This document shows, in pieces, positions 5,972-45,220 of a stretch of 64,000 nucleotides of DNA. The translations under genes were made by a program, and so were the position numbers. The notes beneath the pieces were generated by a model, which was not told where the DNA came from, ran no database searches, and worked only from the letters and a program-made list of their open reading frames with translations. Within the stretch, counting starts at the first letter, position 1. Each line of letters opens with the position of its first letter. Source of the DNA: Dehalococcoidia bacterium (lineage in GTDB: Bacteria; Chloroflexota; Dehalococcoidia; UBA2979); contig CBDHDI010000027.1 in assembly GCA_965261685.1 (NCBI GenBank), positions 344,808 to 408,807 on the forward strand, written 5' to 3'.

Positions 5972-6534
5972 GCGCGCGCGCGCGCGACGTGGCCCCGGTC
6001 AGCGTCGCGCTCTATCTGATCACGCTCGGCGCGGTGCTGCTGATCGACAGTACCGGCGCGCACTCGCTCGGCCGCGCCGGCGCGATTGGCAGCGCCTTCG
6101 GCCTTGCCTTCGTCGCCCTCGGTGTGCTCGCCGTGCTCGCGGCCTGGCGGGTGCGGCGCTTCACGCGACGGCTGCGCCTGGCGGTCGGCCACGTGCGCTC
6201 CTCCGTGGACGGCTGGACCGTCGAGGACGACGCCGTGATCTCGACGGTCGTCGGCGACATCGAACTCGACCTGCGGGAGGCGGCGCTGCCGCCCGGGGAA
6301 ACGGAGCTGGCGCTATTCTGCTGGCTGGGCACGATCCAGGTGCGCGTCCCGCGCGGCATCGGCGTGGACGTCACCGCCCAGTCGATCGTCGGGAGCGTCG
6401 ACATCCTCGGTCGTCGCGAGGAGGGCATCGTGCGCGACATCCACCTGCGCAGCGATGGCTACGAGGAGGCCGAGCGCCGGGTGCGGATGCGCCTCTCGAC
6501 CTTCGTCGGCGAGCTGCTTGTCGTCCACGTGTAG
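5968..6534 (+). CDS. LiaF-like (DUF2154-type) cell-envelope stress membrane protein
   Basis: N-terminal TM helices plus a C-terminal beta-rich domain (DIELDLREA...GTIQVRVPRGIGVDV); ATGA overlap with upstream small gene. Confidence 0.5.
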   Translation: MSARARDVAPVSVALYLITLGAVLLIDSTGAHSLGRAGAIGSAFGLAFVALGVLAVLAAWRVRRFTRRLRLAVGHVRSSVDGWTVEDDAVISTVVGDIELDLREAALPPGETELALFCWLGTIQVRVPRGIGVDVTAQSIVGSVDILGRREEGIVRDIHLRSDGYEEAERRVRMRLSTFVGELLVVHV

Positions 6535-6555
6535 GTAGCAGCCCGGGCCTTCGCG

Positions 6556-7173
6556 CTACTCCCGCAGCGGGCAGGCGGCGCAGCGCTCGATCGCCGGCGG
6601 CGCGGCCTCGATGCACGCGACGCGCGCGAGCAGGCCGCGCACGGTCCAGAGCGGCAGCCCGATGACGGCACAGAGACAGCCGTCCACGCTCGCGGCCGGC
6701 GCGAACTCCGCATCCTGCACGGCGTAGCCGCCCGCCTTGTCGAACGGCTCGCCGCGGGCGATGAAGCGCCGGATCTCCTCGTCGCCGTAGTCGCGCATCG
6801 TGACGGCGGTCGTCGCCGCCTCGACGGCGTCCCGGCCCTCCGAGGCGACCGCGACCGCGCTCACCACCTCGTGGCTGCGGCCGCGCAGCGCGCCGAGCAT
6901 CGCCGCGGCCTCGTCCGCGCCGTCCGGCTTGCCGAGCACGCGCCCGTCGAGGACGACGATCGTGTCGGCGGCGATTACGGGCGCGCTCGGGTGCGCCGCC
7001 GCCGCGGCGCGCGCCTTGCGCAGCGCGAGTTGCGAGGCGCGGCGCTGCGGGTCGGGCTCCTCGCTGCTCTCCTCCACGTCGGTGGGGCGGACGACGAAGT
7101 CGAGGCCGAGCGCCGCGAGCAGGTCGCGACGGCGAGGGGAGGCCGAGGCGAGCACAGGCGTCGGCTGCCCCAC
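6556..7173 (-). CDS. maf: Maf-like nucleoside triphosphate pyrophosphatase
   Basis: Motif VLASASPRRRDLLAALG; GTG start chosen, overlapping the rlmD stop by a few bp. Confidence 0.8.
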   Translation of the reverse strand: MGQPTPVLASASPRRRDLLAALGLDFVVRPTDVEESSEEPDPQRRASQLALRKARAAAAAHPSAPVIAADTIVVLDGRVLGKPDGADEAAAMLGALRGRSHEVVSAVAVASEGRDAVEAATTAVTMRDYGDEEIRRFIARGEPFDKAGGYAVQDAEFAPAASVDGCLCAVIGLPLWTVRGLLARVACIEAAPPAIERCAACPLRE

Positions 7174-7177
7174 GCGC

Positions 7178-8464
7178 TCAGCTCGTGGCCCGGTCGAGGG
7201 TCGAGATGCACTCGATGTGCTGCGTGTGCGGGAACATGTCGATCGGCTGCAGCTCGCTGAGCTCCATGCCGCCGTCGGCAAGGCGGCGCAGATCGCGGGC
7301 GAGCGTCGCCGGATCGCACGAGACGTAGACGAGCCGCCGTACCCCCGACTCGACGATCGCGTCGATCACGGAAGCGTCGAGGCCCGCGCGTGGCGGGTCT
7401 ACGACGACGACGTCCGGAGCGGGATCGAGCGCGGGGAGCTGCTCCTCGACGGTGCCGACGATGCGGCGGACGTTGTCATACGGCGCGAGGTTGACCTCGG
7501 CGTCGTCGCCGGCGGCGGCGGACGCCTCGATCGTGACGACGTCGGGCACGACCTGTGCCAGTGCGACGGCGAACGTGCCGACGCCGGAGTAGGCGTCGGC
7601 GACGAGGCGGGGCTGGACGGCGCGGGCGCGCGCGACGACGAGCTCGATCAGGCGCTCCGCCTGGCGCGAGTTGACCTGGAAGAAGGCAGGCGAGGAGACG
7701 CGGTAGCGCGCGCCGCGCAGCAGCTCGTGGTAGTGGGGCTGGCCGCTGCGCGTGCGCCCTCGGCGGTGCGGGCGCCAGCGCAGCTTCGGCTGGACGAGCA
7801 GTTCATCGCTGTGCTCGCCCGCGCGGACGGTCAGCGCTCGCGTCTGCATCGTGCGGCCCTGCGCGTCCTGCAGCACGCGGTTGGCCGCCGGGAGCGCGAT
7901 CTCGCAGTGGTCGATGCGCAGGAAGCGATGGCTGCCGTGCTCCATGAAGCCGACCTCGCCGTCGCGCCGCACGGTGAAGCGCATGTGGTTGCGGTACGCC
8001 CAGGGGTCGGCCATGCCGATCATCTCCTGCAGCACGCCGTCGATCGCCTCGTCCTCGAAGCGGCCGATGCGGCGCAGCTGGTCGCGCACGATGCCGGTCT
8101 TGAGGCGCAGTTGCTCGCCGTACGAGATGTGCTGGAGCTGGCAGCCACCGCAGCGCCCGAAGTACTGGCAGCGCGGCTCGACACGATGCTCCGAAGGCTC
8201 GCGCACCTTGATCGTCGTGGCCTCGATGTAGGACGGCGACTCCGCCGCGATCTCGGCGAGGACGCGTTCACCGGGCATGGCGTAGTCGACGAATGCGATG
8301 CGGCCGTCGGGGGCGCGTCCGACGGCCTTGCCGCCCGCGGCGAAGCCGGTCAGCTCGATCTCGATCGGCTTGCGAGGGCGATCGAGCACGCGGCGGCGCC
8401 GCCGGCTCCTCTGGCGTCGGCGCTGGGGTGCGGGCTCTGGCGAAGCGGGATACTCGTTGCTCAC
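7178..8464 (-). CDS. rlmD: 23S rRNA (uracil-C5)-methyltransferase, RlmD/RumA family
   Basis: TRAM domain, Cys cluster CQYFGRCGGCQLQH, C-terminal class I SAM methyltransferase fold; GTG start at 8464. Confidence 0.8.
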   Translation of the reverse strand: MSNEYPASPEPAPQRRRQRSRRRRRVLDRPRKPIEIELTGFAAGGKAVGRAPDGRIAFVDYAMPGERVLAEIAAESPSYIEATTIKVREPSEHRVEPRCQYFGRCGGCQLQHISYGEQLRLKTGIVRDQLRRIGRFEDEAIDGVLQEMIGMADPWAYRNHMRFTVRRDGEVGFMEHGSHRFLRIDHCEIALPAANRVLQDAQGRTMQTRALTVRAGEHSDELLVQPKLRWRPHRRGRTRSGQPHYHELLRGARYRVSSPAFFQVNSRQAERLIELVVARARAVQPRLVADAYSGVGTFAVALAQVVPDVVTIEASAAAGDDAEVNLAPYDNVRRIVGTVEEQLPALDPAPDVVVVDPPRAGLDASVIDAIVESGVRRLVYVSCDPATLARDLRRLADGGMELSELQPIDMFPHTQHIECISTLDRATS

Positions 8465-8542
8465 GGTCTGATCGTACGCGCCGGAGGCGGCCGGGCGCGA
8501 GCGCGGGTAGCATCGGCGCTGCCGAGGCGGAAGGAATCGTCC

Positions 8543-9661
8543 GTGGTCGACGTGCCGGAACGGCTGCGCGAACTCGTGCGCGAGGTGGTCTCGATCCCGT
8601 CCGCGCCGTACCTCGAAGGGGGCGTGCGCGACTACCTGCGCGACTTCGCCGCCGCGCGCGGACTGACGCACGAGGAGGACGTGTACGGCAACGTGCGCAT
8701 CACCTACCGCCGCGGCCGCCGGCGCCGCCCCCTGGTCCTCGGTGCGCACATGGACCACCCCGGCTTCGTTGTCGAGCAGGTGCGGGGCGGGCGGCTGCGG
8801 CTCGAGTTCCGCGGCGGGCTCTCCGCCGAGTACGGCAAGGGCGAGCGCGTCGCCCTCTACCGCGAGGGCGAGCGAGCGCCGCACGCCCAGGCGCGCATCA
8901 CCTCGGTGCAGCGTGACGAGCGGCAGCGGCTGACTGGCGCCGCCGCCACGCTGGAGCGCGGCGGCGGCGAGGCTGCCGAGGGCGACCTCGCGCTCTGGGA
9001 CGTGCCCGTCTGCCGCTTCCGCGGCGACTTCGTGCAGGCGCGCGCCTGCGACGACCTCGCCGGCTGCGCCGCCGTGCTCGCAACGCTCGAACGCGTCGCC
9101 GCGGAACGGCGTAGCGGGCACCTGGTCGGTCTCTTCACGCGCGCCGAGGAGGTCGGGCTGCGAGGCGCCTCGGTCGTCGGTCGCGAGCGGCTGCTGCCGG
9201 AGGACGCGCTGGTGGTGGCCGTGGAGACATCCTCGTTCGCGGGCGGGCGGGCGGTGCAGGGCGGCGGACCGATCATCCGCGTCGGCGATGCGATCCACAT
9301 CTTCTCCCCGCTGCTGACGCAGTGGATGACGACGCTCGCGCAGGAGCTGGCGAGCGAGGAGCGCGACGGCTTCGCCTGGCAGCGGCGGTTGATGGACGGC
9401 GGCGTCACCGAGGCCACGGCCTACGACCTCTACGGCTACGAGACGGGCGCGGCCTGCATCGCACTGGGCAACTACCACAACGCCGGGCCGCGCGGCCGCG
9501 TGCGCGCGGAGACGGTGCGGCTCAGCGACCTCGAGGGCCTCGTGCGGCTCTTCGAGCGGATGCACCGCGAGGCGCCGCGCAGCGGGCGGGCGCTGCCCGC
9601 GCTGCTGCGCCGCTACGACCGGCTGGGACGCGAGGCGGCGCCGCTGCTGCGGGAGTCCTGA
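8543..9661 (+). CDS. M42-family metallopeptidase (FrvX/glutamyl aminopeptidase-like)
   Basis: GAHMDHPGF motif and metal-ligand pattern; transcribed divergently from rlmD. Confidence 0.7.
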   Translation: MVDVPERLRELVREVVSIPSAPYLEGGVRDYLRDFAAARGLTHEEDVYGNVRITYRRGRRRRPLVLGAHMDHPGFVVEQVRGGRLRLEFRGGLSAEYGKGERVALYREGERAPHAQARITSVQRDERQRLTGAAATLERGGGEAAEGDLALWDVPVCRFRGDFVQARACDDLAGCAAVLATLERVAAERRSGHLVGLFTRAEEVGLRGASVVGRERLLPEDALVVAVETSSFAGGRAVQGGGPIIRVGDAIHIFSPLLTQWMTTLAQELASEERDGFAWQRRLMDGGVTEATAYDLYGYETGAACIALGNYHNAGPRGRVRAETVRLSDLEGLVRLFERMHREAPRSGRALPALLRRYDRLGREAAPLLRES

Positions 9662-9688
9662 GCCGCGCCCGGCGAAGGGCGATCCGGC

Positions 9689-10273
9689 TCAGCGACCGAT
9701 CAGCGCCCAGACGGCTTCCTCGGTGTCGTGCTCGACGTGGCCCTCGCGCATCAGGCGGGTGAGCAGGCGGCTGTCGCACTCGCCGCTGGCCTCGATGTGG
9801 TCACGGATCGCCTCGCTGCGCGCCGTGTTGCCGAGCACGACGGCGAGCAGCAGCTCCCACTCGAGCGGCGTGGCGAGGACGGTGGCGCCCTCGAATGCGA
9901 TGTGTGCGCGCGCGTCCCAGAGCGAGGGGATCTCGAGCGGCGTCAGCGTGTCGTAGGCGCCGTGGAACGTCGGGTTCGCGTGCACGAAGACCGGCACGGC
10001 TCCGCGTTGGAACTGCAGCCGCGAGGCGGCCACGTGCGCGCCTCGCTCCCAGGTCGCGTCCACGCCGAGCATCTCGGCGAGGGAACGAATCGCCGGGTCG
10101 CTGGTGATGAACTCGATGTTGGCGGCGCTTACCTCGACGCCCTGCAACTGCGTCGCGGCGGCACCGACGAGGGCCCACGGCTGCGAGTCCGCGGCTTCCT
10201 CGATGATGCGCACGAGCGGGCCGAGCACGGCGTGCTGCTCGGCGTCGAGGCGAGAGCGTTCTTCTATGGTCAC
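9689..10273 (-). CDS. hypothetical protein (194 aa)
   Basis: Clean ORF with coding-like GC3; no motif recognised. Confidence 0.5.
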   Translation of the reverse strand: MTIEERSRLDAEQHAVLGPLVRIIEEAADSQPWALVGAAATQLQGVEVSAANIEFITSDPAIRSLAEMLGVDATWERGAHVAASRLQFQRGAVPVFVHANPTFHGAYDTLTPLEIPSLWDARAHIAFEGATVLATPLEWELLLAVVLGNTARSEAIRDHIEASGECDSRLLTRLMREGHVEHDTEEAVWALIGR

Positions 10274-25705: not shown

Positions 25706-28015
25706 CTAGCCGCCGCTCCGCACCGCGCGCGCGGCCTCGACCATGTGCTCGAGGGCGGGGACGACCTCGTCGTAGCGGCGGGTCTTGAGGCCGCAGTCGG
25801 GGTTCACCCAGAGGCGATCGGGGTCGAGCACGGACGCGGCGTCGCGCAGGCTGCTCGCCATCTCCGCCGTCGAGGGCACGCGCGGCGAGTGGATGTCGTA
25901 GACGCCGAGGCCGACTTCCTTGTCATAACCGTGGTCACGGAACGCATCGAGGCCCTCGGCGTCGGAGCGGGCGTTGAAGAGCAGCATCACGTCGGCCTCC
26001 ATGTCGGAGACCGCGTCCAGCACGTCGCGCAGCGGCACGTAGCACATGTGCGACTGGATCTGCGTCGTGTCGGCGGCCCCGGCGGTGGCGAGGCGGAAGC
26101 AGGGGACCGACCAGCCGAGGTAGGCGGGCCAGTCCGCGCGCCGTAGCGGGACGCCCTCGCGCAGCGCCGGTTCGTCCACCTGGATGACGGCGATGCCGGC
26201 CGCCTCGAGGTCGGCGACCTCCTCGCGGATGGCGAGCGCGATCTGGCGGCAGGTCTCGCTGCGCGGCTGGTCGTCGCGCACGAACGACCAGTTGAGGATC
26301 GTGACCGGTCCGGTCAGCATGCCCTTCACCGGGCGGTCCGTCAGCGACTGCGCGTAGGCGGACCAGCGCACGGTCATCGGGCCGGGCCGCGCCACGTCGC
26401 CGTAGATGATCGGCGGCTTCACGTTGCGCGAGCCGTAGGACTGCACCCAGCCGAAGCGCGTGAAGGCGAAGCCGGCGAGCTGTTCGCCGAAGTACTCGAC
26501 CATGTCGTTGCGCTCGGACTCGCCGTGCACGAGCAGGTCGAGGCCGGTCTCCTCCTGCAGCCGGATCACGCGCTCGATCTCGGCCTCGATGAAGGTCTCG
26601 TACTCCGCGTCGTTGATCTCGCCGCTGTTGCGGCGGCGGCGGGCGCGGCGGATCTCGGGCGTCTGCGGGAACGAGCCGATCGTCGTCGTCGGGAACTCCG
26701 GCAGCCGCAGCCGCTCGCGCTGGGCCTGGCGGCGCTCCTCGACGGAGCCGTCGCGGCTGTAGTCGGCCTCCGAGGTGGCGGCGACGCGCTCCCGCACGTC
26801 CGGGTCGTGCGTGCGCGGCGAGCTGCGGCGCGACTCGAGGGCGGCGCGGTTGGCGGCCAGTTCGCCGGCCGCGGCGCCGGGGTTGCCGAAGGAGCGAGCC
26901 AGCGTGGCGACCTCGTCGACCTTCTGGTTGGCGAAGGCGAGCCAGGAGCGCAACTCGGGGTCGAGCCTGGTCTCCAGCTCGAGCTCGAGCGGGACGTGCA
27001 GCAGCGAGCACGAGGTGCCCGCGATCACGCGGTCGTCGCCGACGGCCGCGCCGACCTCGCGCAGCGTCGCGAGCGAGGCGTCGAGGTCGTTGATCCAGAC
27101 GTTGCGCCCGTCCACGACGCCCGCGACGACGTGCTTGCCGCCGGGCAGCCCGTGGCGTTGCAGCAGCCCGAGGTTGCGCCCGCCTCGCACGAGGTCGAGG
27201 CCGATCGCGGCGACGGGCAGCGCGACCAGCGCGCCGAACGACTCGTCCACGTCGCCGAAGTAGGTCTGCACCAGCAGCTTCGTCCCGCCCGCGGCTCCCG
27301 CAAGGCGGTCGTACGCCATCGCGAGGGCGGCGAGGTCCTCGGGCGAGCGGTCCTGCACCAGCACCGGCTCGTCGAGCTGCACCCACTGCGCGCCGGCGTC
27401 ACGCAGCAGCGCGATCACCTGCTCGTAGACGTCGAGCAGGGCGGGCAGCAGCGAGAGCCGGTCGAAGCCGGGATCCTGGTGGCCGTCGCTGCCGACGCCC
27501 TTGCCGAGCAGCAGCAGCGAGAGCGGGCCGAGCAGCACCGGCACGGTCTCGATGCCCGCCTCGCGCGCCTCGAGGTACTCGTCGAGCGGCTTGCGCGAGG
27601 CGAGGCGGAAGCGCGTGGAGGCGCTGAGTTCGGGGACGATGTAGTGGTAGTTCGTGTCGAACCACTTGATCATCTCCATCGCGGTCACGTCGAGGCCCTC
27701 GCGCTGCGCCCCGCGCGCCATCGCGAAGTAGGTCTCCGCATCCACCTCGCCCTCGCCGCTGTCGCCGTAGCGAGGCGGGACCGCGCCGACCATCGCGATC
27801 GCGTCGAGCACGTGGTCGTAGTGGGAGAAGGTGTTCGAGGGAATGAGGTCGATGCCCGCCTCGCGCATGCGCTGCCAGCCCTCGAGGCGCAGCGCGCGCC
27901 CGGTCTCGTCGAGGGCGTCGCGGTCCACCCTGCCGTCCCAGTAGCCCTCGACGGCGCTCTTCAATTCGCGCCGCGGGCCGATGCGCGGGTAGCCGGTGAT
28001 GGCGGACAGGGTCAT
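25706..28015 (-). CDS. metE: cobalamin-independent methionine synthase
   Basis: Full-length two-domain MetE with conserved N- and C-terminal motifs. Confidence 0.95.
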   Translation of the reverse strand: MTLSAITGYPRIGPRRELKSAVEGYWDGRVDRDALDETGRALRLEGWQRMREAGIDLIPSNTFSHYDHVLDAIAMVGAVPPRYGDSGEGEVDAETYFAMARGAQREGLDVTAMEMIKWFDTNYHYIVPELSASTRFRLASRKPLDEYLEAREAGIETVPVLLGPLSLLLLGKGVGSDGHQDPGFDRLSLLPALLDVYEQVIALLRDAGAQWVQLDEPVLVQDRSPEDLAALAMAYDRLAGAAGGTKLLVQTYFGDVDESFGALVALPVAAIGLDLVRGGRNLGLLQRHGLPGGKHVVAGVVDGRNVWINDLDASLATLREVGAAVGDDRVIAGTSCSLLHVPLELELETRLDPELRSWLAFANQKVDEVATLARSFGNPGAAAGELAANRAALESRRSSPRTHDPDVRERVAATSEADYSRDGSVEERRQAQRERLRLPEFPTTTIGSFPQTPEIRRARRRRNSGEINDAEYETFIEAEIERVIRLQEETGLDLLVHGESERNDMVEYFGEQLAGFAFTRFGWVQSYGSRNVKPPIIYGDVARPGPMTVRWSAYAQSLTDRPVKGMLTGPVTILNWSFVRDDQPRSETCRQIALAIREEVADLEAAGIAVIQVDEPALREGVPLRRADWPAYLGWSVPCFRLATAGAADTTQIQSHMCYVPLRDVLDAVSDMEADVMLLFNARSDAEGLDAFRDHGYDKEVGLGVYDIHSPRVPSTAEMASSLRDAASVLDPDRLWVNPDCGLKTRRYDEVVPALEHMVEAARAVRSGG

Positions 28016-28049
28016 GCGTGGCCTCCGGGCGTCGGAGTTGGTGGGCTGC

Positions 28050-28355
28050 TCAGCCGGATCGTACCGGCCCGCTGTCGGACGGGCTATCCGCGCGCGCCGT
28101 ATCGCCCGTCGCGAGGCGCAGTTCGGCGAAGGCGAGCCACGCCTCGCCTCCGTCCGGCGGCGGCGCGAGCCGCACCCCGGCGAGCGTCACGGCGCGCCCG
28201 TCCTCGGCGAACGAGTACCCCTCGAGGAGCCGTAACGCCTCGGGCGGCCCCTTGAGCAGCACGCGCCCGGAGCCGCCCTCGTCGCGCGTCTGCTGCTGCA
28301 CCCGCACGAGGACGCGCTCTCCGCGCACGCGGATCGGGAGCACTCGGTCGATCAT
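28050..28355 (-). CDS. small hypothetical protein (101 aa) in the metE leader region
   Basis: ORF with coding-like GC3; no motif recognised; could be non-coding. Confidence 0.3.
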   Translation of the reverse strand: MIDRVLPIRVRGERVLVRVQQQTRDEGGSGRVLLKGPPEALRLLEGYSFAEDGRAVTLAGVRLAPPPDGGEAWLAFAELRLATGDTARADSPSDSGPVRSG

Positions 28356-28362
28356 GGGGGCG

Positions 28363-29337
28363 TCAGCTCTGACTCGGTATCCCGAGAGCGACGAGGAGGC
28401 GCGCCCGGAACGACTCCCAGTCCGACCCCTCGGCGGCGCTGATCTGAGCGTAGTCGAAGAACTGGGTGGTCGACGGCGACTCGCGGGTGATCCGGTCGCG
28501 ATCGAGGCCCATCAACGCGATCAGGGTCCAGCGATGTTCAAAGTGAGCCTGCCGAGCCTTGATGTGGCTCTTCTCGGCCTCGCCGACGCGGTTGTGGGCG
28601 TTGGAAATATCGCTGCCACCCTTGATCTCCATTGCAACCTTGGGCTCGCGCCCGCCCTCGATTACTTCGTAGATTCGTACGTCGGGATCACTCGAGAACT
28701 CGATAGCCACGGGGCGATCAGCTGCGTTGCGCAGGCGAAGGTGCGTCTTGGACTTAAACTCCAGGAACTCCCCGGCTATCGCGCGGATACGCTCGTGGAC
28801 GACGAGGACTGCGTCACTTCCGATCGCCACGTTTCGCTGTCCTTGGAGTGTTGGGCCGAGTGTCAGCAGCGCCAGGTCCTGGAGGTCCCGATCCGTGAAC
28901 GAGAACATCGCGTCGGCGAGTCTGCTCAAAGCGTCCGCCATGGTGCGGCAGAGTTCCGGAATCTCGGCGTCCCGGTCAGGGGTCAGGACGCCGTTGACTT
29001 CTGCGCCCTCGAAGCGCTGGTAGCCGTAGGTCTGTCGCCACGCCTTGCGCGAGATACCAAGCAGCATCCGGTAGTAGCCGATGAGCGTCGGCCTGGCGCG
29101 GATGACGCTGGGCACGGGGAACACCCGCTCGCCACGGATCCCGAGCGCGGCGAGCCGGGTCAGTGGCCCGTCCGCCACGAACTCGGCCAGTTCGCGGTCT
29201 ACGGTCCGCGCGCCTGCGGCTTCGACGGCCTCAGCAACGCCCTCCTGGAGGTACAGCGGGCGGAGCGCCAGCAGCGAGTCGAACAGATGGATCGCGATGT
29301 CTGGTTCGAGCTTCTCAAAGTTGCCCTGAGTCGTCAC
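28363..29337 (-). CDS. putative type II restriction endonuclease (324 aa), translationally coupled to the upstream methyltransferase
   Basis: GTG start overlaps MTase TGA stop (GTGA at 29334-29337); PD-(D/E)xK-like DVRIYEV...EIKGG; size and gene order resemble CCCGGG-type Cfr9I/XmaI/XcyI systems (inference). Confidence 0.55.
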   Translation of the reverse strand: MTTQGNFEKLEPDIAIHLFDSLLALRPLYLQEGVAEAVEAAGARTVDRELAEFVADGPLTRLAALGIRGERVFPVPSVIRARPTLIGYYRMLLGISRKAWRQTYGYQRFEGAEVNGVLTPDRDAEIPELCRTMADALSRLADAMFSFTDRDLQDLALLTLGPTLQGQRNVAIGSDAVLVVHERIRAIAGEFLEFKSKTHLRLRNAADRPVAIEFSSDPDVRIYEVIEGGREPKVAMEIKGGSDISNAHNRVGEAEKSHIKARQAHFEHRWTLIALMGLDRDRITRESPSTTQFFDYAQISAAEGSDWESFRARLLVALGIPSQS

Positions 29338-30234
29338 AGCAGCGTCGCGGTGGCTTCCGCCTCGAATCGCCGCCGGGCGATCTCCAGGTACGCTGGCTGA
29401 AGCTCGATACCGAGGAAGCGCCGACCTTGGCGCGCCGCTTCGATTCCTACCGTGCCGGATCCGAAGAACGGGTCGAGGATTACGTTTCCGCGCTCGCTTG
29501 CGAGGGCGATGCAGGGGCGGATGAGTTCGGGCGGGAACGTCGCGAAGTGGGCGCCAGGGAACGGGCGCGTCGGGACATCCCAAACTGTCCGGAGGTTGCG
29601 ATCGTTCTCGCCGCGGACGGCCGTGTTGTCGTAGAGGTAGCGCTCGGACTTCGAGAACAGGAACAGGTACTGCGTGTGATCGCGTCGGACGGTCCCTGAC
29701 TGATTCCGGCATACAGTTCGGCTTGTTCCAGACGATGTCCGACCGCAGATACCAGCCCGCATTCTGCAGAGCGAACGCAACGAGCCAGGGGATGCCGACG
29801 AGATCCTTGGGCTTCAGGCCTTTCGGCGTGGGCGGGCGCGTGTCCATCGCCCGCACGGGGTTCTTGCGGTCCGCGTCGCGCCACTTGCGCCCACCGGACG
29901 TGTATGAATCCCCGAGGTTCAGCCAGAGCGTCCCGTCGGAGCGTGTCACTCGATGGACCTCAGTGAAGATGGCGGCGAGCGTAGCCACGTAGTCGCGCGG
30001 ATCGTCCTCAAGGCCGATCTGTCCAGCTGCGCCGTAGTCGCGCAATCCCCAGTAGGGGGGCGACGTGATCGTTGTCTGAACGAAGTCGCCGGGCAACCGG
30101 GACAGGATCGTCCGTGCATCGCCGAGCAAGCCGATTGAAGCCCAACGCTCCGGCGGCAACACATCGCTGGCGAGCGATGCGACGCTGCCGTTCAGCGCTC
30201 CAAATTCGCCCCAGTCAACTCTCATCGCGCCCAC
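29334..30234 (-). pseudogene. beta-class N4-cytosine/N6-adenine DNA methyltransferase (motif IV SPPY N-terminal, motif I DPFFGSGT C-terminal) split by a frameshift near 29700
   Basis: N-terminal 178 codons in one frame (…ESVRDRPTRSHA) and C-terminal 148 codons in another (…RRDHTQYLFLFSKSERY…DPFFGSGT); total 901 nt is not a multiple of 3. Confidence 0.7.
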
Positions 30235-30276
30235 CCTGCGGCGCTAACAATAGCAGAATGGGTGTTCTATCGCTAG

Positions 30277-30504
30277 TCAACGCCCGCCTGGCGGGGTGCC
30301 TTTCCGTTGGCGCTTCTCCCATGCGCGCGCCGCATCCTCGGTTGTTGCGCGGCCGACCTGATCGAGGTGTCCGCTTTGGTTCACCTTGCGCTGAAGCTCG
30401 CGTTCCCGAATTTCCGGATCGCGCCTGGTGATGCCGCTGCGGATGATCGTCCCGTCGGGCCTCTTGAACTGGTACTTGCGGTGGTCCCGTGGCTGACTCG
30501 CCAT
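30277..30504 (-). CDS. small basic hypothetical protein (75 aa) between nrdJ and the RM genes
   Basis: ATG at 30504 preceded by strong SD GAGGAGGAG; same strand as flanking genes; no motif recognised. Confidence 0.45.
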   Translation of the reverse strand: MASQPRDHRKYQFKRPDGTIIRSGITRRDPEIRERELQRKVNQSGHLDQVGRATTEDAARAWEKRQRKGTPPGGR

Positions 30505-30515
30505 CTGTCTCCTCC

Positions 30516-33500
30516 TCAACTACACCCGGACGTGCTCCCGCAGGACATGCACTTCAGGCAGGTGCCGTTGCGCACCATCATCATCTGGCCGCACTCCGGG
30601 CAGGGGTCGCCCTCGAAGCCGTAGTGGCGCGCTGTCGTGGGCTGGATGGCCGGGGCGGCTGCCACGGCGGTCGCGGCCACAGCTGCGGCCGAGGGCGCCT
30701 CGGGGGCCGGGCCGGCGGGGGCGGGGGCTGCCTCGGCGGCTGCGGGGGTTCCGTGGCCGTTCGAGCCGCCTGCGATCGGGGTCAGCACGTACTCGCGCGG
30801 GTCGGGCGCCGGCAGTGGCTGCGGCGCCGGCGCCGGCCACGCGCCAGCCTCGTCCTCGTCCTCCGCCGTCGAGGTGCTCGACAGGTCGACCGGCCCGAGG
30901 TGGGCGAGGTCGCCGCGGCCGAGGTAGCTGACGGCCAGCTCGCGGAAGACGTAGTCGATGATTGAGGTTGCCATGTGGATGCGGTCGTTGCCGGTGACGA
31001 TGCCGTTCGGCTCGAACTTCGTGAACAGGAAGGAGTCCACGTAGGCCTCGAGCGGCACGCCGTGCTGCAGCCCGATCGAGACGGCGATCGCGAAGCAGTT
31101 CATCAGCGAGCGGAAGGCCGCGCCGTCCTTGGACATCGAGATGAAGATCTCGCCGAGGCGCGCGTCCTCGAACTCGCCCGTGTGCAGGTAGATCGTGTGG
31201 CCACCGACCTTGGCCTTCTGCGCGAAGCCGGGACGCCGCGAGGGCAGCGGCTCGCGCTCGCCGCGCTGCAGCCCGACCAGCTTCCGCGCCAGCACGCGCG
31301 CGTCCTCCCGAGGCAGCGAACGGATGATCCGCTCCACCTCGTCCAGCGCCTGCTTCGGGTCGAGCTCCGCCGCCGCGGGCTGCTCGTCGAGGTCGTCGAG
31401 GTCGTCGAAGTCCTCGAAGTCGTCGCCGAGCACGGTGGCGGCGAGGGGCTGCGAGAGCTTGGAGCCGTCGCGGTAGAGCGCGAGCGCCTTCAGCATCGAG
31501 GCGGCTCCGGCCTCGTAGACGGCGGCGACGTCGCCGACGCTGGCGTCGTCGGGCAGGTTGATCGTCTTGCTGATCGCGCCGGAGAGGAACGGCTGCGCGG
31601 CGGCCATGATGCGCACGTGCGCCATCGCCTCGATGTAGCGCGTGCCGTAGCGGCCGCAGCGGTTGGCGCAGTCGAAGACGGCGTAGTGCTCCTCGCGCAG
31701 GTGCGGGGCGCCCTCGATCGTCATGCGGCCGACGATGTAGTCGTTGGCCTCCTCGATCTGCTCGCGCGTGAAGCCGACCGCCTCCAGCAGGTTGACGCCG
31801 GCAAGCTGCTCGTCGCTCAGGCCGAGCACGTCGCGGCAGAACTCGTCGCCGAGCACGAAGCGGTTGAAGGCGAAGGTGATGTCGAACGCCGAGCCGAGCG
31901 CCTCGTCGACCGCGTCGAGGGCGCGGCGGTTGAAGCCGTGCTGGGCGAGCGTGTGGCGGTTGATGTGCGGGGCGCCCTCGAGGCGGCCACTGCCGACGCA
32001 GTAGGTAACGATCTCCTCGACCTGCGCGGGCGTGTAGCCGAGCGTCCCCAGCGCGCCGGGGACGGACTGGTTGATGATGCGGAAGTAGCCGCCGCCGGCC
32101 AGCTTCTTGAACTTCACGAGTGCGAAGTCCGGCTCGACGCCCGTGGTGTCGCAGTCCATGAGCAGGCCGATCGTGCCGGTGGGCGCGATCAGCGTGGTCT
32201 GCGCGTTGCGGAAGCCGTGCTCCTCGCCGAGGGCGAGCGCGCGGTCCCAGGAGGCCTGCGCGGCCTCCAGCAGCGCCCTGGGGCAGTGTTTGGCGTCGAG
32301 GCTCACCGGGAGCGTTGTCAGCTCCTCGTAGTCCTCGGCGGGTGCGTCGTAGGCGGCGCGGCGGTGGTTGCGGATCACGCGCAGCATCGCGTCGCGGTTC
32401 GGCTCCCAGGCGGGGAAGGGGCCGAGCTCCGCGGCGATCTCGGCTGAGGTCGCGTAGGAGACGCCGGTCAGCAGCGCGCTGTAGCCGCCGGTCTGGGCCA
32501 GCGCCTCGGGCGAGTCGTAGGGCACGCCCTGGTGCATCAGCAGCGCGCCGAGGTTGGCGTAGCCGAGGCCGAGCGTGCGGTACTCGTGGGAGAGCCGGGC
32601 GATCACGGGGCTCGGGTACTGCGCCATCAGCACCGAGATCTCGAGCACGATCGTCCACAGCCGGGCGGCGTGCTCGTACGCGGCCACGTCGAACTCGTTG
32701 CTCTCCTCGTCGTGGAAGCGCATCAGGTTGAGCGAGGCGAGGTTGCAGGCCGTGTCGTCGAGGAACATGTACTCGGAGCAGGGGTTGGAGCCGCGGATCG
32801 GGCCGCCTGCCGGCGAGGTGTGCCACTCGTTGATCGTCGTGTCGTACTGCACGCCGGGGTCGGCCGACTGCCAGGCCGCGCGCGCGATGCGCTCCCACAG
32901 ATCGCGGGCGCGCACGGTCTTCGAGGGCTTGCCGTCGACGCGGCGGTAGAGCGTCCATTCGCGGTCCTGCTCGACGGCCTCGAGGAAGTCGGCGCTGACG
33001 CGCACGGAGTTGTTGGCGTTCTGGCCTGAGACGGTCTGGTAGGCCTCGCCCTGCCAGTCCGTGTCGAACTCGCGGAAGTCGATCGGCGCCTCGCCGGCCT
33101 CGGCGAGCTGGAGGACGCGCTGGACGCAGCCGTCCGGCACGCCGTCGCGGCGCGCGCGAGCGATGGCGCGGCGCAGCGCGCGGTTCTGCGTGGGGTCGAA
33201 GCCCTCGGCGGTCGCATCGAGGACCGCGGCCAGGCGGCGGCGGATCGTGCGCGAGCCGGCGACGAGGGCGGCGACCTTCTGCTCCTCGGCCACCTTCCAG
33301 TCGATGAACTCCTCGATATCGGGGTGGTCGACGTCGACGATCACCATCTTGGCAGCGCGGCGGGTGGTGCCGCCGGACTTGATCGCGCCGGCGGCGCGGT
33401 CGCCGATCTTGAGGAAGGACATGAGGCCGGAGGACTTGCCGCCGCCGGAGAGGAACTCGTTCTCGCCGCGGATGCGGGAGAAGTTGGAGCCCGTACCGGA

Positions 33501-42984: not shown

Positions 42985-43836
42985 TCAGAGTCCTTCGAAC
43001 TCCGCGAAGCTATCCGAGCCGTCGGCCTGGATGGCGTACCGAAATCGGAGTTCATCCTCAGGGTGGCCTCGGCTGTCGTCCTTGATCCCGGTCACGTGCA
43101 AGGCGGCATAGAAGCCTGCGGTGTTGCGGAGGACAGCGACCCCCCCTAACCCGACAGTTCTGGCAGGCGACGTGTAGTCGAGCGTCTCGGCATTGCTCAC
43201 CGACGAGATGGATGTGCATCTAGGCGCGAGTGCGACACCGTGGATCGATGCGGGATCGTTGTACAAGTGTATGGCGGTGTTGCTGCCCTTGCTCCACTTG
43301 GTCTCGAACTCCAGAGTCCCGTTCCCTATGACATATCTGCCGTTGTAGCTGCTGTAGTCGAACACTGCTTCGCCGGTCAAAGAACTCATTCGCGGTGGCG
43401 GTACTTCGTGAGCCTTGCCGGAGAGTCGAGGGACGCCGACCTTCTCGGCAATCATCGCTGCAAGGCCCGCTGGTGTGTGCTCCTCGGCGCGTTCGTAGAG
43501 GACATCACTCGGAAGACCTGGAACGCGTGTGTCGTCAAAGCGCACTGGCAGGATGTACTCCCTTGACTCTTGCACGGCTCGGCTCAGCGCTGCCCTTCTC
43601 TCGTGGATGGGCCACGCGCGCTCGACATAGTCCTTCGAAATGAACATAACGACGTACCCGGATCCCCGAGCGAAGACCTCCTCGAAGACCTCAGAACCGT
43701 GGGCCCCCCACAGTTGGACTCGCTCGAACCCGTCGTAGAAGACGGGTATGCCGCGAGCCTGAAGTGCGCGTGCTACTCCTTCCGCATAGGGACGTTGTGC
43801 GCCAGCAAAAGACAGCGCGACTTGGTACCGCTCCAT
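42985..43836 (-). CDS. TIR-domain protein with about 130-aa C-terminal domain of unknown function
   Basis: Bacterial TIR pattern (YQVALSFAGAQR...GIPVFYD...VVMFISKDYVERAWPIHE with conserved catalytic-position Glu); start at MERYQV. Confidence 0.65.
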   Translation of the reverse strand: MERYQVALSFAGAQRPYAEGVARALQARGIPVFYDGFERVQLWGAHGSEVFEEVFARGSGYVVMFISKDYVERAWPIHERRAALSRAVQESREYILPVRFDDTRVPGLPSDVLYERAEEHTPAGLAAMIAEKVGVPRLSGKAHEVPPPRMSSLTGEAVFDYSSYNGRYVIGNGTLEFETKWSKGSNTAIHLYNDPASIHGVALAPRCTSISSVSNAETLDYTSPARTVGLGGVAVLRNTAGFYAALHVTGIKDDSRGHPEDELRFRYAIQADGSDSFAEFEGL

Positions 43837-43885
43837 GGACCCCACCGTCACATCTGAGAGTCGGACCGGATTGCCACTCGCCGCC

Positions 43886-45220
43886 CTACAGCCCGAGCAG
43901 CCGGCCGAGGCCGCCCGCACCCTTGCCCGAGGTCATCGCCACCATCAGCTTCTTCGCCTCGCGGTACTGGTTGAGCAGGCGGTTCACGTCCGCCGGCTGC
44001 TTGCCGGACCCGGCGGCGATGCGGCGTCGGCGCGAGCCGTCGATGATCTCGGGGCGGCGGCGCTCGCCCGGGGTCATCGAAAGGATGATCGCCTCGTTGT
44101 GCTTCCAGAAGTCCTCGCCGACATCCGGGATGGCGAACTGATCCTTCATCCGGCCCGCGCCCGGCAGCATGTCGAGCAGGCCCGAGATCGGGCCCATCTG
44201 CTGCATCTGCTGCATCTGCGTGAGGAAGTCCTCGAGGTCGAACTGGCCGCGCTGCATGCGCCGCGCGACGTCCTTCATGTCGCGCTCGCCGATCGTCTCC
44301 TTCGCCTTCTCGACCAGCGACACCACGTCGCCCATGCCGAGGATGCGCGAGGCGAAGCGGTCCGGGTGGAAGGCTTCCAACGCCTCGAGGCGCTCGCCGG
44401 TGGTGATGAACTTGATCGGCAGCCCGGTCACCTGGCGCACGGACAGCACGGCCCCGCCGCGCGTGTCGGAGTCGACCTTGGTGACGACGATGCCGGTGCC
44501 CTCGACGGCGTCGTCGAAGTCGCGGGCGAGCGTCACCGCCTCCTGCCCCGTCATCGCATCGACGACGATCAGCACCTCGGTCGGGTCGATCTCGTCGGCG
44601 AGGTCCGCCAGCTCGTCGGCGAACTCGTCGTCGAGGGCGACGGCGCCGCGGGTGTCGACGATGACCGCGGTCGCGCCGGTGCGCTGCGCCTCGGCGAGCG
44701 CGCGCTTGCCGACCTGCGGCGCGGGCGCAGCGGTCTCCTCGGCGTAGACGGGCACGCCGATCTGATCGCCGAGGACGCGCAGCTGCTCGGAGGCGGCGGC
44801 GCGCTGGAAGTCGGTGGCGACGAGCAGGGGGCGCAGGCCGTCCTTCTGCAGGTGCAGCGCGAGCCGCGCCGCGAGGGTGGTCTTGCCCGAGCCCTGCACA
44901 CCGCAGACGAGGATCTTCGTCGGCCCTCGCTGCGCGCGCAGCAGCGGCTCGTTGTTGCCGCCGAGGATCTCGACCAGCTCGTCGTTGACGGCGCCGATCA
45001 CCTGCTGTCCGGGCGTGATCGACTGCAGCAGCGCGCTGCCGGAGGTGCGCTCCCGCACCCGCGCGACGAACTCGCGCACGACCTGGAAGTTCACGTCCGC
45101 CTCGAGCAGCGCGATGCGCACCTCGCGCAGCGCCGTATCGAGGTCGTCCTCGGTAATCCGCCCGCGGCTGCCGAGGCGGCCGAAGGTGGCCTGGAGTCGG
45201 GAGCTCAGGGTTTCCAGCAT
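43886..45220 (-). CDS. ffh: signal recognition particle protein Ffh (SRP54)
   Basis: N, G (GTPase motifs GVQGSGKTT) and Met-rich M domains. Confidence 0.95.
   Translation of the reverse strand: MLETLSSRLQATFGRLGSRGRITEDDLDTALREVRIALLEADVNFQVVREFVARVRERTSGSALLQSITPGQQVIGAVNDELVEILGGNNEPLLRAQRGPTKILVCGVQGSGKTTLAARLALHLQKDGLRPLLVATDFQRAAASEQLRVLGDQIGVPVYAEETAAPAPQVGKRALAEAQRTGATAVIVDTRGAVALDDEFADELADLADEIDPTEVLIVVDAMTGQEAVTLARDFDDAVEGTGIVVTKVDSDTRGGAVLSVRQVTGLPIKFITTGERLEALEAFHPDRFASRILGMGDVVSLVEKAKETIGERDMKDVARRMQRGQFDLEDFLTQMQQMQQMGPISGLLDMLPGAGRMKDQFAIPDVGEDFWKHNEAIILSMTPGERRRPEIIDGSRRRRIAAGSGKQPADVNRLLNQYREAKKLMVAMTSGKGAGGLGRLLGL

Follow-up and report, generated by a model that had tools for sequence, protein, structure and literature searches.

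How can a bacterium keep an apparently intact restriction endonuclease gene beside a methylase gene whose reading frame is broken? The question is raised by a pair of genes in a 64-kb stretch of DNA (the window, contig CBDHDI010000027.1) from an uncultured Dehalococcoidia bacterium, where a two-gene cassette appears from its sequence to be a type IIP restriction-modification system of the XcyI/XmaI/Cfr9I family with a methylase gene broken by one base. All coordinates given here are positions in the window, and all features of the cassette are on the minus strand. A first-pass annotation, made from the letters alone, had pointed out that an inactive methylase with an intact cognate endonuclease would be lethal and had offered as ways out a sequence error, a dead endonuclease, another protecting methylase, or a frameshift that acts as a switch. 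We favor, with a probability of about 0.5, a genuine and very recent loss-of-function allele that disarms the module; the odds of a real lesion against an artefact are near even, with a real and very recent one slightly favored. The two genes and their junctions are laid out as follows.

29673-30225, minus strand: methylase gene 5' of the frameshift, from the ATG at 30225 through codon 184 to the initial base of codon 185
29672, minus strand: the inserted base, a C on that strand, located by DNA alignment to relatives
29334-29671, minus strand: methylase gene 3' of the frameshift, from the second base of codon 185 through codon 296 to the TGA, off the start-codon frame
29334-29337, minus strand: GTGA overlap, the endonuclease GTG on the methylase TGA (29336-29334), in a conserved NTGA geometry
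28363-29337, minus strand: XcyI-family type IIP restriction endonuclease gene, 324 residues, apparently intact (GTG start at 29337-29335, stop at 28363-28365)
28363-30225, minus strand: fusion open reading frame (ORF) of 620 codons, comprising methylase residues 1-184, 112 out-of-frame Arg/Pro-rich residues, and the whole endonuclease

To judge from its motifs, the upstream gene encodes a beta-class N6/N4 methyltransferase with motif IV N-terminal to motif I. Motif IV (SPPY) is at 30063-30052 and motif I (DPFFGSGT) is at 29474-29451, and the two lie in separate frames, as the first-pass annotation had recognized; no single uninterrupted frame contains both. With base 29672 removed the gene encodes 296 residues, in accord with the earlier estimate of about 300, and these match PF01555 over its length (profile positions 1-220 of 221, E 3.7e-47). 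The start at ATG 30225 agrees with the 296-residue genes called in the relatives L001, L082, and L083. The methylase also matches the PADLOC model MTase_II, and 7,995 or more proteins in the database resemble it at E <= 1e-40, many of them with 60-70% identity. Many close homologues (64-70% identity) carry the JGI name cytosine-N4-specific methyltransferase, which agrees with the N4C type proposed at first. The solved relatives include N4C and N6A enzymes, so the sequence alone cannot settle the chemistry.

The frame is broken by one extra C. In the alignment to L001, the relative's CACGAGTAC reads CACGCAGTAC in the window at 29672, and the codon GAG, for the Glu of the conserved RSHEYLFLFSKS motif (SHEY), becomes GCAG. 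The break noticed earlier between ...RPTRSHA and DHTQYLFLF is real and consists of this base, although it lies slightly downstream of the position near 29700 that had been given for it. The extra base is missing from all seven homologues, which are the close relatives L001, L002, L082, and L083 and three more distant alleles, L086-L088, with 72-80% identity. It is also the sole frame-breaking indel in any gene over the 8.6 kb that can be aligned with both L001 and L002. The four close relatives are Dehalococcoidia metagenome-assembled genomes (MAGs; L002 is the chromosome OZ250164.1), and all four have this cassette in the corresponding place, with a 296-residue methylase that is intact and a 324-residue endonuclease. 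In L001, a 2.0-Mb ENA contig with an intact methylase gene, the gene order is nrdJ, a 75-residue ORF, the methylase, the endonuclease, a 101-residue ORF, and metE, and the endonuclease is 95% identical to that of the window. A scan of the phase of G+C content at third codon positions (GC3) over the whole 64 kb, with spot checks, disclosed no other broken gene. Frame changes at 6000-9700 were considered and proved to be ordinary boundaries between genes (Maf, a tRNA-U5-methyltransferase-like gene, and an M42 peptidase).

The 324-residue product of the downstream gene matches the Pfam family PF09571 (RE_XcyI) with 265.2 bits (cut-off 25) and E 9.6e-79, and the match spans residues 21-321 and profile positions 3-305 of 305. 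It also matches the PADLOC REase_II model (E 6.9e-64). A database search with the endonuclease gave 162 homologues at E <= 0.001; among the 120 matches listed, every one bears PF09571, and the name 'XcyI family restriction endonuclease' is given to several. The PD...ExK core that had been read from the sequence is present, with Asp217-Pro218-Asp219 (28689-28681) and Glu237/Lys239 (28629-28621) all retained. In a 63-sequence family alignment the endonuclease keeps 32 of the 32 invariant columns, and L126I is the sole departure peculiar to the window where conservation reaches 70% or more. A dead endonuclease, one of the ways out of the lethality argument, thus finds no support. The AlphaFold2 model has a mean predicted local distance difference test score (pLDDT) of 94.9. 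In a Foldseek comparison with the PDB its top matches are the two chains of BsoBI in 1dc1 (E 8.7e-5, probability 1.00, template modeling (TM) score 0.46-0.48), which is the only significant match among solved structures; weaker matches, including other restriction nucleases, come next. The model thus appears to have a PD-(D/E)XK nuclease fold, at a modest TM-score. A sequence search of solved structures with the endonuclease returned chance matches only.

The full-length match to the Pfam family built on XcyI makes the resemblance to the CCCGGG systems XcyI, XmaI, and Cfr9I, which had been offered earlier as an impression of size and order, a matter of homology. The window pair shares with these systems the sizes of its proteins (about 296 residues for the methylase and 324 for the endonuclease), a beta-class SPPY methylase, and an arrangement in which the methylase gene comes first and its stop is overlapped by the endonuclease start. 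It differs from them in its host, a high-G+C member of the Dehalococcoidia and not a proteobacterium, and in its broken methylase frame. With BsoBI (C^YCGRG, PDB 1dc1), the best structural match over the whole model, the endonuclease shares an N-terminal helical region and, after it, a PD-(D/E)XK core; the degenerate BsoBI site includes CCCGGG and is cut after the first C, as by XmaI. BsoBI differs in having 14% sequence identity at a modest TM-score, in belonging to another Pfam family, and in recognizing a degenerate and not a strict hexamer.

The overlap of the two genes is a conserved feature. In all 38 related loci that have the beta-class type of methylase, that gene is directly upstream on the same strand, and in 22 of the 38, from several phyla, the stop of the methylase and the start of the endonuclease share an NTGA. 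The stretch 3-12 nt ahead of the endonuclease start lacks a Shine-Dalgarno core in the window, and of 24 loci with an NTGA overlap that were examined, 18 lack one there too. The overlap and the lack of a Shine-Dalgarno core together fit coupling by termination and reinitiation, and the Cfr9I endonuclease has been described as translationally controlled (Lubys 1994, by way of PMC12707154). Among the XcyI-family loci L003-L081, about half, mostly from Acidobacteriota, lack a homologue of the beta-class methylase; these loci (e.g. L005, 4991-5899) have a different upstream methylase-like gene with motif I before motif IV and 'DPPH'. XcyI-family endonucleases therefore have methylase partners of at least two unrelated kinds.

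The first-pass annotation placed the endonuclease GTG correctly on the methylase TGA (GTGA, 29337-29334) and expected the 324-residue protein to be translated by coupling. It overlooked that 28363-30234 is a single uninterrupted ORF, because of which coupling does not apply to the window allele. Past the insertion the reading frame is free of stops and identical with that of the endonuclease, giving 623 uninterrupted codons if counted from the upstream GTG at 30234. In the four close relatives the shifted frame contains one TGA (AAT GAT); the window reads AAC GAT at this point (third base 29604), as do the distant L086-L088. Since the shifted frame is open and is that of the endonuclease, ribosomes that start on the methylase of the window allele would never terminate at the GTGA junction and would read through to make a fusion.

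These features suggest how the lesion could be tolerated. In the intact form of the four relatives, the methylase would be translated from its own start, and the endonuclease, having no ribosome-binding site of its own, would be made only by ribosomes that have just completed the methylase; such coupling would keep the endonuclease low and dependent on methylase expression. The extra base at 29672 would take the half of the methylase that binds S-adenosylmethionine (AdoMet) out of frame and would also send ribosomes straight into the open endonuclease frame, with loss of termination at GTGA. The endonuclease domain would then be obtainable only as the tail of a 620-residue polypeptide. Because free endonuclease would no longer be produced, the module would be disarmed rather than the cell killed, and the argument from lethality is lessened to that extent.

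Single-chain fusions of this kind also occur naturally in the XcyI family. P0245 and P0249 (625 residues) and L014 2-1123, from JGI, ENA, and NCBI assemblies of Rubrobacteraceae and Chloroflexota MAGs, each combine in a single frame a complete methylase (SPPY...DPFLGSGT) and an XcyI-type endonuclease. They match the 620-codon ORF of the window in length and in order, with methylase and endonuclease in one frame, and differ from it in that the methylase is whole, with DPFLGSGT in frame and a short linker, whereas the second half of the methylase in the window is replaced by 112 nonsense residues.

The age of the lesion can be judged from the substitutions around it. The pairwise ratio of nonsynonymous to synonymous rates (dN/dS) of the repaired methylase is 0.11-0.13, similar to the 0.16-0.17 of MetE, and the window-specific codon changes 3' of the break comprise 5 nonsynonymous and 18 synonymous ones, a ratio indicating that the original methylase frame was under purifying selection. 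The endonuclease carries no damaging change. The out-of-frame half has thus evolved as coding sequence over essentially the whole of the divergence, and the insertion must be very recent or absent from the DNA. The substitutions are unevenly distributed and define one further feature.

29422-29715, minus strand: mosaic tract in the methylase gene, 292 bp, codons 171-267, which holds the inserted base

Of the 50 substitutions specific to the window in the 1,862 bp of the two genes, 33 lie in this tract. Its divergence is 11.3%, as compared with 1.1% elsewhere (Fisher p 4.5e-16, for a tract picked post hoc; log-likelihood ratio 33), and the changes are mostly synonymous. It may stem from gene conversion by a diverged allele, or from a consensus that is chimeric between strains; L086-L088, the distant alleles, are too divergent to polarize the recipient lineage.

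Whether the base is truly in the DNA is the point on which the argument turns. The explanation that survives best beside a genuine mutation is an error of consensus or assembly, in which case the organism would have an intact working XcyI-type module organized as in its relatives; we consider it a serious contender for which we would not quite offer even odds. Long-read metagenome assemblies, from which the relatives all come, typically retain single-base indels as residual errors, and the mosaic tract could reflect reads from a second strain in the consensus. An error would also agree with the intact genes of the four syntenic relatives and with the lack of relaxed selection in methylase and endonuclease, and the paradox of a null methylase beside an intact endonuclease would disappear. 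One other locus of the 38, L059 (5171-5945, a Gemmataceae MAG), likewise has a frameshifted beta-class methylase adjoining an intact endonuclease, there of 329 residues, and counts on the same side. In that locus the break comes directly before DPFIGSGT and is followed by a premature TGA, again without a homopolymer. Frameshifted methylases thus occur at a few per cent of such loci, whatever their cause.

The nature of the site speaks for a real mutation. Errors of this kind concentrate in homopolymers and repeats, whereas no base stands three or more times in a row at the insertion, Tandem Repeats Finder returned no repeat in 28300-30600, and the longest run in the methylase gene, a C6 at 30060, is intact. 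The absence of any other broken gene in 64 kb points the same way, because it limits the rate of indel errors to at most a few per 100 kb, at which a hit in an 891-bp gene is improbable. A search of metagenomes with a pattern across the frameshift, which permitted either allele, gave no match.

Several points weigh against a genuine allele that disarms the module. (i) The methylase is intact in every one of the four close relatives, and the complete lack of decay is predicted equally by an assembly error. (ii) The inserted C has G and A as neighbors and is not a simple duplication of either, which is unusual for a spontaneous insertion by slippage. (iii) It lies inside the 292-bp tract of tenfold higher divergence, where the consensus could be strain-chimeric. 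(iv) Strong counter-selection is to be expected against a null methylase combined with an intact endonuclease gene. (v) The natural 625-residue enzymes indicate that an N-terminal extension need not inactivate the endonuclease, which weakens the proposal that the fusion would be harmless. (vi) A hairpin at the junction that might hide the endonuclease start, such as is reported for Cfr9I, is unsupported in the window (fold -36.8 kcal/mol, z -0.8).

If the base is real, it may alternatively be that the endonuclease is active, as the fusion or by occasional initiation at the GTG, and that a second methylase elsewhere on the chromosome covers its sites. The sites themselves can be predicted from the family. 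Within the XmaI family, Cfr9I and XcyI cut C^CCGGG, and their methylases form C-m4C-CGGG, where m4C is N4-methylcytosine (PMC1920265, Table 1); the C^CCGGG specificity is common to all characterized family members (PMC1920265). By its membership of the family, the window system is predicted to cleave C^CCGGG and to methylate the second C, giving C-m4C-CGGG. CCCGGG occurs 23 times in the window. Dinucleotide shuffles (n = 100) gave 43.5 +/- 7.5 occurrences, with at least 23 in 100 of 100, and an order-4 Markov model predicts 37.1, for an observed/expected ratio (O/E) of 0.62. This O/E is the lowest among the eight palindromic hexamers composed only of G and C; several palindromes that contain A or T are equal or lower. 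The earlier statement that CCCGGG is not avoided thus stands as to the presence of sites and fails as to their number, and the three positions listed for them (2763, 22996, and 23286) were 9-19 nt off, the true ones being 2782, 23013, and 23295. The mild avoidance is compatible with a resident CCCGGG system and is no proof of one. No CCCGGG occurs between 24743 and 39099, a gap of 14.4 kb that includes the cassette, at a mean spacing of 2.8 kb; by an estimate that allows for the number of gaps, this one is insignificant (about 0.13).

A second methylase, such as an orphan m4C or m5C (5-methylcytosine) enzyme acting on CCGG or CCCGGG, would account for the full conservation of the endonuclease and for the protection that 23 CCCGGG sites per 64 kb would require, and the natural fusions suggest that an N-terminal extension is tolerable. 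Against this, no other amino- or C5-methylase motif is found in a credible gene within the window, which represents less than 2% of a genome of about 3.5 Mb, and the 112 nonsense residues would make a properly folded fusion less likely. We regard protection by a second methylase as quite improbable.

The proposal that the frameshift is a regulatory device, whether a phase-variable switch, programmed +1 ribosomal frameshifting, or transcriptional slippage that restores the methylase, fares worse and is very improbable. The window resembles phasevarions in having a methylase frame switched off by a change of length. Phase-variable methylases and restriction-modification systems depend on homopolymer or short tandem repeat tracts (PMC12707154), whereas neither is present at or near the insertion. 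The shifted frame does open with codons that are rare in a GC3-rich genome (GCA GUA CCU GUU) and could slow ribosomes; at CAC-GCA-GUA, however, P-site tRNA re-pairing in the +1 frame is impossible, and there is no slippery motif at the site. The insertion is missing from all seven homologues and so is not conserved. With no repeat, no slippery site, and no conservation, neither a switch nor programmed recoding is likely. Naturally split methylases are known in other families (M.AquI and M.EcoHK31I), and a second-frame ORF (29334-29780, 148 residues) does open upstream of the break; nevertheless, a methylase assembled from the N-terminal part and a C-terminal part begun at an internal start (TTG 29780 or ATG 29762) is scarcely credible, as no relative is so organized, no ribosome-binding site is evident at the internal starts, and the break cuts the conserved SHEY motif.

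A genuine disarming allele invites a wider conjecture. Off-frame stops are rare in G+C-rich genomes, so that one mutation can end methylation and swap the coupled free endonuclease for a long fusion. Where the NTGA overlap is conserved, a single-base insertion in the methylase gene leads into the endonuclease frame and might provide a one-step 'safe exit' from an addictive module, of which the window would be an event caught; the natural 625-residue enzymes could have arisen through an indel close to the 3' end of that gene. We give this generalization an outside chance.

Beyond annotation the importance of the locus is low. It should be labeled an XcyI-family (predicted CCCGGG) cassette with a methylase pseudogene or possible sequencing error, and annotation as a 620-residue hypothetical protein is to be avoided. 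If the base is real, the window would be a natural example of a methylase-first, coupled module that was lost without the expected self-restriction, with a link to the naturally fused enzymes of the family, and the current understanding of restriction-modification would be unchanged. Only two points are even mildly unusual, namely that the frame reads through into the endonuclease and that single-chain relatives exist in nature.

The pair forms part of a larger insert.

28362-30510, minus strand: variable cassette of orf80, methylase gene, and endonuclease gene, between the nrdJ stop and the orf101/metE start
30277-30504, minus strand: orf80/orf75, a small ORF with no function assigned, at the upstream end of the cassette, called as a 75-residue gene in L001 and L083

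The cassette is about 2.15 kb in size and contains no mobility gene. Homology of the flanks to the sister genomes L084 and L085 (96-97% at the nucleotide level) ends at 30511-30514 and resumes at 28357-28361, and these breakpoints are a few bases from the nrdJ stop and the orf101 start. In neither sister genome does the interval hold a restriction-modification cassette: in L084 (3013-3999) it is occupied by an NYN-domain gene and in L085 (3046-3995) by an 88-residue ORF and a VanZ-like gene. From these comparisons the interval between nrdJ and orf101/metE appears to be a variable slot in which the restriction-modification pair is an insert, which bears out the first-pass description of a pair inserted between metE and nrdJ. 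The cassette is foreign in composition, with GC3 of 0.66-0.81 as compared with 0.96-0.97 in nrdJ and metE, and its G+C content falls to 0.61-0.68. The 101-residue orf101 is native, because it adjoins metE in cassette-free genomes as well. Members of 85-142 residues in the P0001 cluster, on megabase contigs, were taken up as possible broken endonucleases and dropped; four of them are homologues of orf101 lumped in by the clustering.

The orf80/orf75 protein is only 77% identical to its counterparts, as compared with 93-97% for the neighboring genes and 94-96% for the flanks; its GC3 is 0.75 and its dN/dS 0.24-0.35. Neither orf80 nor orf101 matches any model in Pfam, NCBIfam, or PADLOC. No regulatory RNA came to light when 27500-31000 was scanned with Rfam, including the region upstream of metE, and a scan for promoters and terminators gave nothing that exceeds chance. 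Elsewhere in the window, at 42985-43920 on the minus strand between ffh and rpsP, is a gene whose 311-residue product has a TIR_2 domain (E 3.4e-14) and weakly matches PADLOC PDC-S66. This gene failed a filter of GC3 >= 0.80 that its neighbors passed, and it may be another small defence-type insert within a conserved operon.

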